A stretch of 64,000 bases of DNA from an uncultured Candidatus Saccharibacteria bacterium (GTDB lineage Bacteria; Patescibacteriota; Minisyncoccia; Phycocordibacterales; PALSA-1337): assembly GCA_964357605.1 (NCBI GenBank), contig CAYHLX010000001.1, forward strand, positions 5,159 through 69,158, written 5' to 3'. Each line of letters begins with the position of its first letter. Position 1 is the stretch's first letter. Shown here piece after piece: positions 853 to 54,427 of the stretch. The notes under the pieces are model-generated. The model saw only the letters and a list, made by a program, of their open reading frames with translations, was not told the origin of the DNA and did not search any database. The position numbers and the translations under genes are program-made.

Positions 853-2367
853 ATGAAAAATAATTTTAATAAAAAAATCTGGCCAAGTCTCTTTATACTC
901 GCAGTATTCTGCTTATTTATTTTTGCCGGATATTCAGTTGTGCATGCTGGCGTTGTGATACAACCAACGCCGACAACTGGACTCCGGGCACACTGGACAT
1001 TTGATACCAAGACATTCAGTTGGGGTACAAATAAAGTCTCGGATGTTTCTGGTAATGGTCATACAGGAACATTAGTCTTTATGGATTCAGGGACCAATCA
1101 AGTTGCTGGTAAAAAAGGCCAAGCGATTTTTCTGGATGGAAATATAGATTCGATCAGTTTGGCTACAAATCCTCTAACCACTTTTTCCAATCCTAGCTCC
1201 GCGTGTACGTGGGTCAATACAAATGATGTCACTGTTTCTACAGGAGGGTTCAATCAGACCATTTTGAATATTTCCGCTGATACCAATAATGGGTTACATA
1301 TGGGCAGTGTGGTCAATTCAGGAAAGTTTTTTGCTTCGTATAAATCAGGTGGTTCCTATTATGGTTCTGAATCAGCCAGTGCAGTTTTTGCTAACAATCA
1401 GTGGGTACATGTGTGTTATGTCTGGAATGGCAATGGTGTCAATCTCTATGCCAATGGTACATCGATTGCCACAACCACCAATACAGATGCTCCAAGTCTG
1501 GTAAACACTATCGGTGCTCGAAATGATCAGATCGATGGTACCTGGTCAGGTATGATCGATGATCTGCGTGTTTACAATCGCGCCTTGTCGATCGCGGAAA
1601 TAAAGCAGATATATAACAGTGGGGCACTGGTATTGAACAGCTTGCAAGGCAACAAAACTGTGGTTCTCCAGAAAACCCCATCAAATTTTCTCACGAACGG
1701 CCTGGTGGGGTACTGGTCTTTTGATGGAAGTAAAATAAATTGGGCCAGCAACACTGTCACTGATAGTTCAGGCAATGGTAATACGGGAACGATGATCAAT
1801 ATGTCTACAACCACTAGCCCTGCGCAGGGTAAGATTGGGCAGGCACTCTCGTTTGATGGGAGTGATGATTATGTGACTGTGGGAACCACTAATTTACCTA
1901 CGACTAATGATGGCACCATTTCTGCTTGGGTGAAAATTGCTCCGTCGCCTTCAGGTACAGATATTGTTTTATCGCATTATTCAACGGTCGCTCCGGCATT
2001 AGGGTATTATAAAATAGTACTGAGTGGAGGTAATCGTCCTATATTATACAATCTCTGTAGTAATGGAGGTGATGGAATATGCACCTCTGATTCCGGAATA
2101 ACTTTGACCCCAAATATCTGGTACCATATTGTTGGTACATTCGGTGGGTTAGATGAAGCTGATTCTGGAATAATATATGTCAATGCAGTAGTTAAAGCAA
2201 CTGGTGGCTTTAATGCCTTCTATAATATACCTGCAGGGCTCGTATTTCGAATGGGTTCAGATGTTGATGGAACAAACTTTTGTAATTGCACTCTCGATGA
2301 TGTCCGTATCTACAACCGCGCGCTTTCGTCAACAGAGATTAAACAGCTTTATAATATGGGCAGATGA
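853..2367 (+). CDS. Secreted protein with two LamG (Laminin_G_3 / concanavalin A-like lectin-glucanase) domains
   Basis: N-terminal signal/TM segment. Two modules each run from 'W(T/S)FD...SGNG(H/N)TGT...G..GQA..(L/F)DG' to the C-terminal hallmark 'DDLRVYNRALSIAEIKQIYN' / 'LDDVRIYNRALSSTEIKQLYN'. The gene ends in a TGA stop. Confidence 0.75.
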   Translation: MKNNFNKKIWPSLFILAVFCLFIFAGYSVVHAGVVIQPTPTTGLRAHWTFDTKTFSWGTNKVSDVSGNGHTGTLVFMDSGTNQVAGKKGQAIFLDGNIDSISLATNPLTTFSNPSSACTWVNTNDVTVSTGGFNQTILNISADTNNGLHMGSVVNSGKFFASYKSGGSYYGSESASAVFANNQWVHVCYVWNGNGVNLYANGTSIATTTNTDAPSLVNTIGARNDQIDGTWSGMIDDLRVYNRALSIAEIKQIYNSGALVLNSLQGNKTVVLQKTPSNFLTNGLVGYWSFDGSKINWASNTVTDSSGNGNTGTMINMSTTTSPAQGKIGQALSFDGSDDYVTVGTTNLPTTNDGTISAWVKIAPSPSGTDIVLSHYSTVAPALGYYKIVLSGGNRPILYNLCSNGGDGICTSDSGITLTPNIWYHIVGTFGGLDEADSGIIYVNAVVKATGGFNAFYNIPAGLVFRMGSDVDGTNFCNCTLDDVRIYNRALSSTEIKQLYNMGR

Positions 2368-47514: not shown

Positions 47515-50751
<3,237 letters not shown>

Positions 50752-50802
50752 AGGGAAAGTATAGCAAAAAATGGCTCAAGAATGTGGTCAAAATTTTGCT
50801 TG

Positions 50803-50838
50803 ACTTTTGGTTATATTATGTTGTATAATTGAAGTGGT
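50803..50838 (+). promoter_or_regulatory. Candidate sigma70-type promoter of the DGR target gene (TTGACT - 18 nt - TATAAT), followed by about a 140-nt leader
   Basis: ttgacttttggttatattatgttgtataattg, read directly. The long untranslated leader before the GTG 50975 / ATG 50984 start has no recognised motif. Confidence 0.4.
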
Positions 50839-50974
50839 TTTAAAGAGCACTTTTACAAGAGAAGAGACGATCCGCTACAGCGTTGAGAGGCTTAAAACAG
50901 ATAAAACTAGGCAATTCAAAGCTGTGGCGGACCATGTCGGTACGTCATACGGCACATAACAAACACGATGAAAG

Positions 50975-51736
50975 GTGATAACGATGAACACATCGATTAC
51001 ATCGAACCAGACAGAACAAGTAGCAACCTTCACTGCAGATGCCGCCCGCTCCGGCGCCCGAAACGTCATGGAACGAGTCGCGAAGATTGAAGGTGTCTCC
51101 CGAGACAGCCTTCAGGCAAGAGTCATCGAAAAAGGCAACGAGCTGACCAAGTTCGTAAGTCGGGAAGTTGAAGCTCTTCTGGAGAGCAAGCTTCTCGCAA
51201 TGCTGATGATCATGCTCGACCACCTCAAGGTGATCATGGTAGGATCAGTGAAAATTGCGACTATGCCCCGCATGAAAGTTGTTGATTGCCTCAAGCAAGA
51301 CGGCGTGATCATCGGCTGGCGTGATGACGATCTGGATGGCTGGCTCTCGGAATATGTTTCAGCGATGCCTACAGGGACAATCAACTGCATGGAACTTACG
51401 AAGCCCGAAGGCACAACTTTCCGCCAGATGGCTGAAGCGGCCCTAGGCATGGCCGGGGCTAACGACGCAGAGCTGAAAAAAGCTCTTCGTGAACGTGGAA
51501 TGACCTTCCACCTTGAACAAGTTCGGGATCTCATCACGAGAACCGAAGCTAAAGAGGAGACAGGCTTCCATAAGGACGGCAAAGCCAACCTCCTTTTTAT
51601 CGAGGATGAGAATGGGGAAGTCTTTGGGCTCCGCGTCCGTCGGGATGACTGCTGGGGGGTGCGCGTCGACTCCTTTGGCAACGACCGCGAGTGGCTTCAG
51701 GGCCGTCGTTTCTTCTCTCGCAACATGCCTGCGTAA
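50975..51736 (+). CDS. DGR target (variable) protein; C-terminal about 36 aa encoded by the VR
   Basis: The VR occupies the last about 106 nt before the stop. The VR-encoded tail 'VFGLRVRRDDCWGVRVDSFGNDREWLQGRRFFSRN' corresponds to the TR-encoded 'IFGLNVNRNDYWKVNVNSFDNDNEWNQGNRFFSRN' (AAC/Asn-rich, as is usual for DGR templates). GC content is visibly higher than in flanking genes. No signal peptide is evident. An alternative start at ATG 50984 has a GGTG Shine-Dalgarno. Confidence 0.75.
   Translation: MITMNTSITSNQTEQVATFTADAARSGARNVMERVAKIEGVSRDSLQARVIEKGNELTKFVSREVEALLESKLLAMLMIMLDHLKVIMVGSVKIATMPRMKVVDCLKQDGVIIGWRDDDLDGWLSEYVSAMPTGTINCMELTKPEGTTFRQMAEAALGMAGANDAELKKALRERGMTFHLEQVRDLITRTEAKEETGFHKDGKANLLFIEDENGEVFGLRVRRDDCWGVRVDSFGNDREWLQGRRFFSRNMPA
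51619..51724 (+). repeat. DGR variable region (VR)
   Basis: Manual alignment to 52014..52119 gives 85/106 identical. Every one of the 21 differences is VR G/C/T opposite a TR A (g/a, cg/aa, cg/aa, g/a, g/a, g/a, gg/aa, cg/aa, g/a, g/a, cg/aa, ct/aa, cg/aa, c/a). Confidence 0.85.
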
Positions 51737-51742
51737 GCAGGC
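51727..51742 (+). promoter_or_regulatory. GC-rich hairpin immediately 3' of VR (gcctgc GTAA gcaggc), with the TAA stop codon inside the tetraloop
   Basis: Read directly. A 6-bp perfect stem with a 4-nt loop in this position matches the hairpin/cruciform element known to flank VR in DGRs and to promote target recognition. Confidence 0.5.
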
Positions 51743-51779
51743 AAGGTTTAGATCCTTGGGTCTTTGGACACTTGGATTC

Positions 51780-51812
51780 AAAGGGGCGTTCGCAAGAATG
51801 CCCCTTTCTGCT
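51780..51812 (+). terminator. Rho-independent terminator of the target gene
   Basis: aaggggcgttcgcaagaatgcccctttctgc: stem aggggc/gcccct followed by a T-rich tract. Confidence 0.5.
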
Positions 51813-52013
51813 ATACTCAAAAAGGCTTTGTTGACATTTCCGTTCACTAAATAGTGGATTGAGGTGACAAAGTCTTTTTCAATCGTTTTATTTTGTTGAA
51901 AAATAAAAAAAGAAAAAAGTTGGTACATGAAACTGGTGAGTGATAGGACTCAAAATAATATACAATCTGGAGACAACCTCAACAGACAGTGACATGGAAG
52001 GTTTTGTGTACAT

Positions 52014-52119
52014 AATCTTTGGGCTCAACGTCAATCGGAATGACTACTGGAAGGTGAACGTCAACTCCTTTGACAACGACAACGAGTGGAATCAGGGCAA
52101 TCGTTTCTTCTCTCGAAAC
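52014..52119 (+). repeat. DGR template region (TR)
   Basis: Adenine-rich cognate of the VR (see the VR feature). It lies in non-coding context between the target gene and the avd/RT genes. Confidence 0.85.
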
Positions 52120-52128
52120 TGTTTCTTT

Positions 52129-52148
52129 CTCCCGCATCAGAGCGGGAG
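52129..52148 (+). promoter_or_regulatory. Hairpin 10 nt downstream of TR (ctcccgc atcaga gcgggag) followed by ttttctttc
   Basis: Perfect 7-bp stem, read directly. It is a plus-strand terminator-like or structured 'spacer' element of the TR RNA, and it overlaps the 3' end of the antisense avd ORF. Confidence 0.4.
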
Positions 52149-52436
52149 TTTTCTTTCTAGAGGAAGGTTTTGTAGTTCCTTATGCCATCCACCGATCATT
52201 TTTCCTGGTTCAATTAAAGTCTTTGAAAGAGCTATGTATCTTTTGTCATCAAGTACTTTTATTTCCCAAGCTACATTTAGGAAAATTTTTAAACAATCTA
52301 GTTTGGTTACTGCTTTCTTTAAATGCGGCATTTTTTCCGTTCTGGGGCTCAAGGCACTCAGACTCAGATTTTCTATAAGTTCTATGAAAAGTGAGTCTAT
52401 TTTTCCGGCAATGGTGTGTCTTTTGGATTTTGGCAT
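52137..52436 (-). CDS. avd: Avd-like accessory variability determinant (four-helix-bundle protein); true start probably upstream at 52524 but out of frame because of a G10 tract
   Basis: The C-terminal 'KLDCLKIFLNVAWEIKVLDDKRYIALSKTLIEPGKMIGGWHKEL' matches the conserved ...L...lgyl.eeey..l...ieeigkmLngli of Avd / 23S-IVS four-helix-bundle proteins. 'MPKSKRHTIAGKIDSLFIELIENL' aligns to the FPKEEKYgLtsQlRRAavSIpaNIAEG helix. The in-frame upstream sequence 'AHSLPVLLKLISSYKLWQQYFDS' supplies helix 1 but has no start codon. An ATG-ATG (52524/52521) sits in the -1 frame just across a G10 run. Confidence 0.6.
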   Translation of the reverse strand: MPKSKRHTIAGKIDSLFIELIENLSLSALSPRTEKMPHLKKAVTKLDCLKIFLNVAWEIKVLDDKRYIALSKTLIEPGKMIGGWHKELQNLPLERKLPL

Positions 52437-52505
52437 GCTATCAAAATACTGTTGCCAAAGTTTATAACTTGAGATTAACTTTAATAAAACTGGTAAGCTG
52501 TGTGC

Positions 52506-52515
52506 GGGGGGGGGG
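52506..52515. repeat. G10 (C10 on the avd strand) homopolymer in the 31-nt divergent intergenic/5' region between avd and the RT
   Basis: Read directly: tgtgc gggggggggg tgaca. This is an exceptional run in a roughly 40% GC genome. With 9 G the avd ORF would start MMSPPPAHSLPV... and be 128 aa. Confidence 0.9.
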
Positions 52516-52555
52516 TGACATCATAGGTTTTAGGTTATCATAATAAGGTTTATAT

Positions 52556-53548
52556 ATGAAGACATATGTTGATATTATTTCTACAAACAATTTACTCAAA
52601 GTTTGGAAAGAATTTTTACGTGGAAAGAAAAAACGTAAGGATGTGAATGTATTTTCACTGCATCTTATGGACAATATCTTTAGGCTTCATAAAGATATGA
52701 AAAATAAAGAATATAAACATGATGAATATGAAGCATTTGGTATTTCTGATCCAAAGCCTCGCAAGATTCACAAGGCTACAGTCAGAGATCGCCTAGTTCA
52801 CCATGTCTTGTATGAAGCCTTATCCCCACAGTTCAATCAAAGATTTATTTCTGATTCATATTCTTGTCGTCTCAATAAAGGGATGCACCGCGCCCTCGCA
52901 AGATTTAAAATATATTCAGGAAAGGTGAGTAAAAACAATACCAAAACATGCTGGATTTTGAAATGTGATATTAGAAAATTCTTTGCTTCTATTGATCAAT
53001 CTATTCTCACATCCATTCTTGAAAAATATATTTCTGATAAAGACATTCTTTGGCTGCTGTCTAATGTCATACATAGTTTCCATAGTACTGCTCCAGGAAA
53101 AGGACTACCTCTGGGTAATCTGACCTCACAATTGTTGGTCAATATTTACATGAACGAATTTGATCAATTTGTAAAACATAAACTCAAAATAAAATGCTAT
53201 ATTCGTTATGCCGATGATTTTGTTGTTTTTGATTCTTGCAAAAGTAATTTGGAAAATCTTATAATTATTTTCAGGGAATTTCTAAAAGAAAATCTAAAGC
53301 TTGACCTGCATCCCAATAAAGTTTTCATAAAAACTCTAGCATCAGGTGTTGATTTTCTCGGCTGGGTTCATTTTCCTAACCACCGAGTGTTGCGTACAGT
53401 TACAAAAAAGAGAATGATGAAGAAAATAAAATCAGGTTTTCGGCCAGAAGTCATAGCTTCGTATATTGGTATGCTTGAACATGGAGATGCTTATACCTTG
53501 CGAAAGAATATAGAAAATCTTCCAGAAATCGAGATAAAGCCGAAATAA
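52556..53548 (+). CDS. DGR-type reverse transcriptase
   Basis: 'GLPLGNLTSQLLVNIYMNEFD' is the DGR-specific motif 4 (I/LGxxxSQ). 'IRYADDFVVF' is YxDD motif 5. 'ISDPKPRKIHKATVRDRLVHHVLYEAL' covers motifs 1-2. The compact 330-aa size and the absence of maturase/endonuclease or intron RNA features fit a DGR RT. Confidence 0.85.
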   Translation: MKTYVDIISTNNLLKVWKEFLRGKKKRKDVNVFSLHLMDNIFRLHKDMKNKEYKHDEYEAFGISDPKPRKIHKATVRDRLVHHVLYEALSPQFNQRFISDSYSCRLNKGMHRALARFKIYSGKVSKNNTKTCWILKCDIRKFFASIDQSILTSILEKYISDKDILWLLSNVIHSFHSTAPGKGLPLGNLTSQLLVNIYMNEFDQFVKHKLKIKCYIRYADDFVVFDSCKSNLENLIIIFREFLKENLKLDLHPNKVFIKTLASGVDFLGWVHFPNHRVLRTVTKKRMMKKIKSGFRPEVIASYIGMLEHGDAYTLRKNIENLPEIEIKPK

Positions 53549-53602
53549 AGTTTTTGTGAAATTGGCTATTGCTTTTAACGGGGTAGTTGGGATAATTGGG
53601 GG

Positions 53603-54427
53603 ATGGGAAATGAAAGTATCAAACTAGCACTCTTTCAGAAGAAGGGGATAAGAAGGACAATTCATGAGAATGAGTGGTATTTTGTTATTGCGGATGTTAT
53701 TGAGGTTCTTACAGATTCCATCAATCCAAAACAATACTTAAAAAATCTTCTGAACAGAGATGAGGAACTTGTAAAAGGGTGGGTTCAAATTGAACACCCC
53801 CTTTCAATAGATACTGCAGGAGGGCCACAGAAAATGCTTTGTGCTAACACCGAAGGTATTTTTCGCATAGTCCAATCAATTCCTTCTCCCAAAGCAGAAC
53901 CATTTAAAAGATGGTTGGCAAAAGTAGGTTATGAAAGAATACAGGAAATAGAAAATCCAGAGCTAGCTACTAAACGAACGAGAATATTATATAAATTGAA
54001 AGGATATCCTGATGATTGGATTGAAAAAAGAATGCGAGGTATTGCTATCAGAGAAGAATTAACTGATGAATGGAAAAATAGAGGGGCGAGGGAGAAAAAA
54101 GATTATGAAATACTGACGACAGAAATTTCAAAAGCGACTTTTGGTGTTACTCCAGAAGAATATAAAAAGTTAAAGGGTTTAGAAAGAGAAAATCTAAGGG
54201 ATCATATGAATGATTTTGAACTTATCTTTACTATGCTTGGAGAACGTTCAACGACCGAAATTCACAGAACCGAAAATTCAAAAGGAGTATCAAAACTAAA
54301 ATCAGATGCAAAAGTTGGTGGTGAAATAGCGGGAGACGCTAGAAAGAGACTTGAAAAGAGGCTCAAGAAATCTCTGGTCTCAGAAAAGAATTTCAAAGAT
54401 CTTAATGAAAAAAGACTTAAAAAATAA
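53603..54427 (+). CDS. DinD-like DNA-damage-inducible protein (Bro-N domain + DinD C-terminal region)
   Basis: N-terminal 'IRRTIHENEWYFVIADVIEVL...NPKQYLKNL' follows the Bro-N pattern (..ir....ge.wFva.Dva..L). The central/C-terminal 'EELTDEWKNRGA...FGVTPEEYKKLKGLERENLRDHMNDFELIFTMLGERSTTEI' resembles E. coli DinD. It overlaps the rnhB start by 23 nt. Confidence 0.6.
   Translation: MGNESIKLALFQKKGIRRTIHENEWYFVIADVIEVLTDSINPKQYLKNLLNRDEELVKGWVQIEHPLSIDTAGGPQKMLCANTEGIFRIVQSIPSPKAEPFKRWLAKVGYERIQEIENPELATKRTRILYKLKGYPDDWIEKRMRGIAIREELTDEWKNRGAREKKDYEILTTEISKATFGVTPEEYKKLKGLERENLRDHMNDFELIFTMLGERSTTEIHRTENSKGVSKLKSDAKVGGEIAGDARKRLEKRLKKSLVSEKNFKDLNEKRLKK

Follow-up and report, generated by a model that had tools for sequence, protein, structure and literature searches.

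The element described here is a diversity-generating retroelement (DGR) located in a 64,000-nucleotide stretch of contig CAYHLX010000001.1 from an uncultured Candidatus Saccharibacteria bacterium (this whole 64-kb stretch is hereafter the window), and our subject is the start of its accessory gene, avd, where a run of ten Gs (ten Cs on the avd strand) stands between the putative start codons and the rest of the gene. Among described systems, the DGR of Bordetella phage BPP-1 (avd-TR-brt; TR, template repeat) shares with that of the window the adenine-specific signature of transfer from TR to the variable repeat (VR), the four-helix Avd fold, and the reverse transcriptase (RT) superfamily. However, avd in BPP-1 is co-oriented and upstream of TR, with its 3′ end forming part of the DGR RNA, whereas in the window avd is antisense and located between TR and RT, and the TR has a terminator-like hairpin of its own. 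To our knowledge, BPP-1 has no repeat at its start codon. According to a DGR survey (PMC5758913), the RT requires Avd for cDNA synthesis in the DGR that has been studied, the Bordetella phage system, and by extension the same dependence would apply here. That survey (Wu et al. 2018 NAR, PMC5758913) also describes an architecture termed B3, TR-(avd)-RT, which is found in 90% of CPR (candidate phyla radiation) DGRs and hardly anywhere else, and which has the same order and orientation as the window, namely target gene with VR, TR, reverse avd, and RT. The window DGR is of the B3 architecture, with avd on the reverse strand between TR and RT, and the antisense avd that an initial annotation of this DNA had presented as an oddity is thus the known arrangement.

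The other relevant comparison is to contingency loci, for example the poly-G/C tracts of Campylobacter jejuni and Neisseria, the tetranucleotide repeats of Haemophilus influenzae lic and mod, and poly-C in the Bordetella fim promoters. By analogy, the avd start of the window and its relatives resembles such loci in having, shortly after the start, either 8-11 Gs or Cs in a row or a di- or tetranucleotide repeat, with a unit that is not a multiple of 3 in an otherwise intact open reading frame (ORF). The likeness would extend to relatives of the window being in different frames, while repeat-free or interrupted versions (L010-L012) are in frame, as if locked ON. Contingency loci control surface antigens or methyltransferases, whereas the gene concerned here is a putative cofactor of a targeted hypermutation machine, in uncultivated CPR bacteria. 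On balance, we lean toward the interpretation that the avd start is an ON/OFF switch of the contingency type, operated by slipped-strand mispairing, and that the window copy is in the OFF state.

Under this proposal, translation of avd would start at ATG-ATG-TCA, enter C10, and have to exit in the Avd register to continue through helix 1 and onward. Ten Cs would lead to termination after 20 codons (OFF), and 9 or 12 Cs would yield an Avd of 128 or 129 aa (ON). Through slipped-strand mispairing as the DNA replicates, the tract would frequently change in length, Avd would be made only in a subpopulation of cells, and mutagenic retrohoming would be turned ON or OFF in a way that is inherited and can be reversed. 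That the tract switches, how fast it does so, and what this does to DGR activity are what we infer from the observations that follow.

The window element has the A-site TR/VR pair, adjacent RT, and VR at the 3′ end of the target gene that characterize a DGR (Table 1). All 19 of the mismatches between VR and TR were at TR adenines (19/19), the stop codon of the target gene was 12 nt past the VR end, and the target protein (253 aa) had no Pfam match. In a search that gave roughly 8000 RT homologues, the nearest relatives of the RT were thousands of Patescibacteria DGR-type RTs adjoining avd. The remaining DGR component is Avd by its sequence, but as written no canonical start encodes its helix 1. 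Specifically, the 99-aa ORF on the minus strand matched Pfam bAvd (E=4e-10) and positions 21-104 only of the NCBIfam DivGenRetAVD profile, and is Avd without helix 1.

Table 1. Features of the DGR and of the avd start in the window (positions are those of the window; functions of promoter-like sites and start codons are putative).
Feature	Position	Strand	Basis or remark
DGR target gene, 253-aa ORF	50975..51736	+	VR at its C-terminal end
Variable repeat (VR)	51621..51724	+	104-nt repeat shared with TR
Promoter-like site GTGACA-16-CATAAT	51989..52016	+	Immediately 5′ of TR; consensus scan
Template repeat (TR)	52016..52119	+	104 nt, 29 adenines
GC hairpin CTCCCGC-ATCAGA-GCGGGAG, then T-run	52129..52158	+	Terminator-like match; hairpin in predicted fold
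avd, callable part, 99 aa, helices 2-4	52137..52436	-	Pfam bAvd PF22296 and NCBIfam DivGenRetAVD
avd helix-1 segment AHSLPVLLKLISSYKLWQQYFDS, in frame with 99-aa ORF, no start codon	52437..52505	-	Translation
20-codon ORF MMSPPPRTQLTSFIKVNLKL (then stop), from ATG-ATG with tract as written	52462..52524	-	Translation
G10 homopolymer (C10 on avd strand), putative slippage tract	52506..52515	.	Sequence
ATG-ATG-TCA, putative avd start codons, 1 nt out of register with Avd frame	52516..52524	-	Sequence
Promoter-like site GTGACA-18-CATAAT for RT	52515..52544	+	Consensus scan
DGR reverse transcriptase (RT), 330 aa	52556..53548	+	RVT_1 E=5e-23

Read along the minus strand, the order at the avd start was ATG (52524-52522), ATG (52521-52519), TCA, C10, GCA CAC AGC TTA CCA, that is, ATGATGTCA, then C(n), then GCACACAGC. 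The Avd frame was open from 52520; a TGA lies in frame at 52523..52521, and before 52436 neither ATG nor GTG nor TTG occurs. Deleting one G in silico (G9) gave a 128-aa four-helix protein starting MMSPPPAHSLPV, which matched DivGenRetAVD positions 4-104, the helix-1 segment covering positions 4-20. In the form found in contingency loci, the window thus has a non-triplet repeat in the 5′ coding region, from which C9 would give the 128-aa Avd and C10 a 20-aa peptide in silico. The tract was also the sole G/C homopolymer of at least 8 in the window, the next longest being two C7 runs, at 2521 and 22483.

The initial annotation had recognized the 99-aa ORF as Avd lacking helix 1, the startless helix 1 upstream of it in frame, the ATG-ATG one register off across G10, and the restoration of a 128-aa Avd by G9, and in each of these our analysis agreed with it. 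Its placement of the tract in the 31-nt gap between the avd and RT starts needed correction, since that gap is 52525..52555 and the tract is inside the putative avd coding region, 3 nt downstream, in the avd sense, of the second ATG codon (counted from the first base of this codon, 6 nt). Nor did the window give any indication of the effect on RT promoter spacing that the annotation had suggested. The tract is not between the RT promoter hexamers; the -35-like GTGACA (52515..52520) abuts its 3′ end.

For the structural consequences of losing helix 1, we considered the closest intact homologue, P0001, which is 84% identical, 129 aa long, and starts MMSPPPPHTLPV. Its AlphaFold2 model had a mean pLDDT (predicted local distance difference test score) of 87.6, with helices at 9-27, 32-58, 61-87 and 93-125, and superposed on 4dwl, the Avd of Bordetella phage, and on the Avd subunits in 8ub7, a DGR ribonucleoprotein, at template modeling (TM) scores of 0.73-0.89 over ~110 columns. 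This likeness came from the fold search, as PDB searched by sequence returned no match. The 99-aa ORF of the window corresponds to residues 30-129 of P0001 and hence is without helix 1, which in the model is needed for the four-helix Avd fold. We rejected residue M30 as the true avd start, given that homologues have Ile or Leu there and that helix 1 is conserved.

Three other copies of the window's lineage were found, and the collections contained none beyond these and the source contig. The first, an ENA contig from Hainich groundwater (L001; sample H41, ERZ1292619), had 2 mismatches to the window across 7014 positions, the same G10, and an identical VR; its coverage is 3x and it may share reads with the window's source. 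The second (L008), a Logan contig from the independent SRA run SRR12404957, is a distinct strain with 87% nt identity in the flanks and 88% in RT, and has C10 in the window's register (ATA ATG TCA C10 GCA CAC ACC). The third (L002), from SRR17549183, reads ATG ATG TCA C11 T CAT ACC, such that ATGATGTCA is in frame and the 129-aa P0001 is encoded. When the 23 codons of the helix-1 segment were compared between the window and L008 in the Avd frame, we found four synonymous changes and one conservative change, and the frame of the upstream ATGs had 0 synonymous against 3 non-synonymous ones. Elsewhere in avd, 30 changes were synonymous and 6 non-synonymous. This synonymous excess in the Avd frame argues that helix 1 is still selected as protein in lineages with the frame break, and by this measure of codon change helix 1 is under purifying selection. 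Moreover, all 20 of the mismatches between VR and TR in L008 were at TR adenines (20/20), and the VR/TR differences were at different A positions in the window and L008, and therefore the DGR acted in both lineages since they split.

To place the window among its broader relatives, we used 160 further loci from the RT alignment, 80 of them from metagenomes and 80 from GTDB genomes, in which avd was located by a hidden Markov model. The named genome records among them were mostly Patescibacteria, a few having other or no taxonomic label. In 159 of the 160 related loci with an avd match, avd adjoined RT on its upstream side and pointed away from it, and in one it was co-oriented. Most of the loci L013-L172 (e.g., L078) had avd and RT ORFs that overlap head-to-head by ~21 nt. 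This overlap forms a near-palindrome, ATG-N15-CAT centered on CAATTG, in which the codon of avd Met1 complements that of RT His7, and vice versa. No such overlap is present in the window (52525..52556), the RT of which starts MKTYVDIIS.

The junction from the RT start to avd helix 1, ~100 nt, was then surveyed in the 157 loci that allowed placement of its two ends. In 147 of these (~90%), avd had a simple sequence repeat at its 5′ end, so that the comparison with orthologous DGRs proposed in the initial annotation returned a repeat at the same spot. The majority had poly-C on the avd strand (129/157, C7-C14, mode 9-10), comprising C7 in 4 loci, C8 in 20, C9 in 39, C10 in 41, C11 in 20, C13 in 3 and C14 in 2. 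Di- and tetranucleotide repeats together accounted for 17 loci (13-41 nt), specifically (CT)n of 13-34 nt in nine, (CA)n in three, (GA)n in two, and (GCCA)n or (AGCC)n of 33-41 nt in three. One further locus (L137) had a G-run beside an assembly gap and was left out of later counts, and ten loci had no repeat or an interrupted tract (e.g., CCCTCCCCCC in L010-L012). All repeat units were 1, 2 or 4 nt, with a tri- or hexanucleotide main repeat in 0 of the 157 loci. Across 688 kb flanking these junctions, we detected just three G/C runs of at least 8 and no dinucleotide repeat of at least 12 nt. The peptides that the repeats would encode were unrelated (PPP, LSLSLS, HTHTHT, RERERE, ASQPASQP), and therefore the conserved trait is repetitiveness with a frame-changing unit, and no protein motif. 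Several contigs ended in or beside the repeat, with L045 (1..38) starting with (TG)19, L091 (1..14) starting 3 nt before the G-run, and L137 having an N-gap near 2453. We rejected contig ends at the tract as a sign of length heterogeneity: they would be expected if assemblers break there, but the cases were too few to count.

Of the 147 repeat-bearing loci, 146 had one or more ATGs upstream of the repeat that were open up to it. In most relatives this ATG is located within the RT gene, ~18-21 nt in, on the opposite strand and in the near-palindrome ATG-N15-CAT. After dereplication, the nearest open upstream ATG was in frame with Avd in 37 loci, one nucleotide too far in 62 (the state of the window), and two nucleotides too far in 37. 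An in-frame open ATG was found in 7/9 loci without a repeat versus 44/138 with one (Fisher p=0.009). One further population with only G5 (L173-L178) had a 124-aa in-frame avd abutting RT, and in L010-L012, with their interrupted tract, avd was in frame with the upstream ATG; both look like versions locked ON. That repeat-free loci are in frame supports the upstream ATG being the real avd start and the repeat being what scrambles the frame.

Taking the survey and the reading frames together, we consider the chances evenly balanced that a large DGR clade of Patescibacteria carries a hypermutable repeat at the avd start, poly-C most commonly and (CT)n, (CA)n, (GA)n or (GCCA)n in some lineages, and that targeted hypermutation is itself phase-variable, in a two-tier contingency system. 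The DGR family and the B3 architecture are already known, and it is the avd-start repeat in this clade that appears to be unreported. Among the searchable papers, we found no link between DGRs or Avd and homopolymers, simple sequence repeats or slipped-strand mispairing, although Paul et al. 2017 (Nat Microbiol) may contain a mention. DGR surveys including PMC5758913 make no mention, in their available text, of any repeat tract where avd starts, or of a frame problem there.

Closely related sequences provided further information on tract length. Within one aquifer population, sequences from different samples had G10 (L191) or G11 (L193, L194, L027) with 0 mismatches in the 2-kb flank. This population, from Rifle, carries P0029, and its records are ERZ27254752 on the one side and ERZ27254763, ERZ27254845, ERZ27254743 and GCA_001794455.1 on the other. 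Two sequences with flanks 99.8% identical had C8 (L074) and C11 (L142), and another pair, one in frame (L077) and one out of frame (L133), differed by one GCCA unit. Additionally, a subclade whose members share the ATG and the sequence downstream had tracts of C8, C9, C10 and C14 in different frames (L059, L047, L111, L075).

Several observations weigh against a switch. Neither the G10 nor the G11 allele is in frame, and Illumina or assembly noise could account for the difference between them. The difference between C8 and C11 is exactly 3 nt, which keeps the register. G10 is the length in each of the three copies at this locus (window, L001 and L008), with no heterogeneity among them, and the consensus length was also constant elsewhere, with G10 in six assemblies of the P0062 population, C9 in four contigs of the P0006 population, and G9 in three contigs of the P0056 population, although consensus sequences cannot reveal minority length variants. 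Moreover, the register with one extra nucleotide is over-represented (62/136, chi-square p=0.01), and our analysis has the weaknesses that start codons were assigned by rule and that the loci are related to one another, which makes the counts and p-values rough. The phase-variable switch put forward in the initial annotation therefore stands in part: it gains comparative support from the non-triplet repeat in 147/157 loci, the scattered frames, the in-frame repeat-free loci, and the one G10/G11 polymorphism, but at the locus itself all three copies are G10.

Some of these same observations would fit recoding, in which a stable C10 is decoded by +1 slippage of peptidyl-tRNA-Pro on CCC_C (with poly-proline stalling before CGC), and/or by RNA polymerase slippage to C9 mRNAs, to give constitutive low-level Avd. 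A C run lets tRNA-Pro re-pair perfectly in any frame, and CCC CCC CCC CGC permits such re-pairing. Known examples of one-nucleotide recoding are +1 frameshifting in prfB and CCC_N tRNA-Pro slippage, along with transcriptional slippage in Thermus dnaX, insertion sequence (IS) elements, and Shigella mxiE. The window is like these in that the product needs a 1-nt register change at a homopolymer and that the register is shared by diverged strains, C10 being what the window shares with L001 and with the 87%-identical L008, in which helix 1 stays under purifying selection. That register is also the one in the six P0062 assemblies, is the commonest among the relatives, and would be preserved by the 3-nt difference between L074 and L142. 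However, the shift site and direction that the window and L008 have in common are not those of L002, which is in frame, and a conserved programmed +1 frameshift was not found family-wide (37/62/37). All three registers are common, with 37 loci needing the opposite shift, and the family has no fixed shift direction. Moreover, 17 loci have di- or tetranucleotide repeats at the same site, where ribosomal re-pairing is impossible, repeat-free loci are simply in frame, and no stimulatory element was identified; efficient transcriptional slippage, for its part, is documented mainly for A/T runs. We therefore regard recoding as unlikely, though still deserving of some weight, and switching and recoding are not mutually exclusive mechanisms.

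The other explanations that we weighed seem less probable still. The repeat might be a DNA or RNA element with a regulatory or structural role in the divergent avd/RT control region (a promoter spacer, a 5′-untranslated region element, or non-B DNA), with Avd starting elsewhere and the upstream-ATG frames being incidental. In many relatives the tract is ~13-20 nt upstream of the RT start and could fall in the RT promoter spacer or leader, 89/146 loci have, in the avd frame, ATG, GTG or TTG somewhere from the tract to helix 1, and the G10/G11 alleles that are both out of frame would fit as well. We nevertheless consider this improbable, since helix 1 is conserved although none of ATG, GTG and TTG occurs in the window from the tract to residue 30, the repeat-free loci have in-frame upstream ATGs, and the tract of the window is upstream of the -35-like hexamer instead of in the spacer. 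A downstream TTG or GTG start at the Leu of the LPVL motif was likewise rejected as a general explanation: the non-start codon TTA is nearly as common there as TTG (28% and 32%, respectively), and a start-capable codon at this position, of which the window has none, was unrelated to frame state. That avd is a frameshifted pseudogene, or encodes a truncated 99-aa protein from M30 in a decaying DGR copy, would agree with the lack of any full-length Avd translatable as written and with the identity of the VRs in the window and L001. Against it are the synonymous excess in helix 1 and the rest of avd relative to L008, which has the same frameshift, the absence of other stops or indels in avd, the independent diversification of the window and L008 VRs at A sites, and the presence of Ile or Leu in place of M30 in homologues; furthermore, two thirds of 138 related loci would have to be pseudogenes too, and we judge decay to be very unlikely. 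Finally, homopolymers are error-prone, and a sequencing or assembly error could conceal a true tract of G9 (or G12) and an intact avd; L001 has only 3x coverage and may share reads with the window's source. However, the same G10 was present in the independent run of a different strain (L008), and out-of-frame tracts occurred in about two thirds of loci across many studies, sequencing chemistries and assemblers. The same G10 in L001 and L008, with helix 1 under purifying selection, makes assembly error and pseudogene unlikely, and the simple assembly error that the initial annotation had offered as its alternative we hold to be the least credible of all.

The only restraint on DGR mutagenesis that we found described is regulation at the transcriptional level, in Bacteroides (bioRxiv 10.1101/2024.11.15.621889). 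If the slipped-strand switch on Avd is real, it would account for the means by which CPR bacteria, with their reduced genomes, confine a costly mutator to part of the population, with a stochastic, heritable and reversible event deciding which cells diversify the DGR target protein. The frequency with which annotations of these DGRs mis-call avd, truncate it or lack it would likewise be explained, and pipelines for finding DGRs should tolerate a frame break at the avd tract. For metagenomes, the prediction is that the fraction of tracts of ON length within a population should correlate with VR diversity.

With respect to transcription, the promoter-like sites 5′ of TR and RT resemble each other (GTGACAT..AGGTTTT..CATAAT), which suggests, from their sequence, TR and RT transcripts that are separate yet similarly controlled. 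The -10 side of the site at TR and the GGAAGGTTTT motif were kept in L008 and L002, while its -35 was not; the site at RT was kept in L008 and took the form GTGACA-17-TATAAT in L002. The hairpin is located 9 nt past the TR end, with the avd stop codon in its loop, and is conserved, the stem in L002 having a compensatory C-G to T-A change. The TR transcript may end at this terminator-like hairpin before becoming antisense to avd, or the hairpin may instead be a structural element of the DGR RNA. The fold of the TR RNA was nothing special (z-score -0.19), the terminal hairpin alone standing out, and no Rfam family matched within 50500..54000.

GC content was 50-56% in the target gene region (50850..51750) versus 31-35% in avd and RT, against a window average of 41.6%, and the raised GC spanned the whole target gene, beyond the VR alone. 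Directly upstream of the target gene is a 1078-aa ORF (47515..50751, minus strand) identified by eye from its translation as a DnaE-type DNA polymerase III alpha subunit. The DGR therefore probably sits among chromosomal housekeeping genes, and not in an obvious prophage. Directly 3′ of RT is a 274-aa ORF with a Bro-N domain (53603..54427, plus strand), followed by RNase HII, and both neighbors were also present in the 80%-identical L002, in which the Bro-N ORF is at 932..1756.

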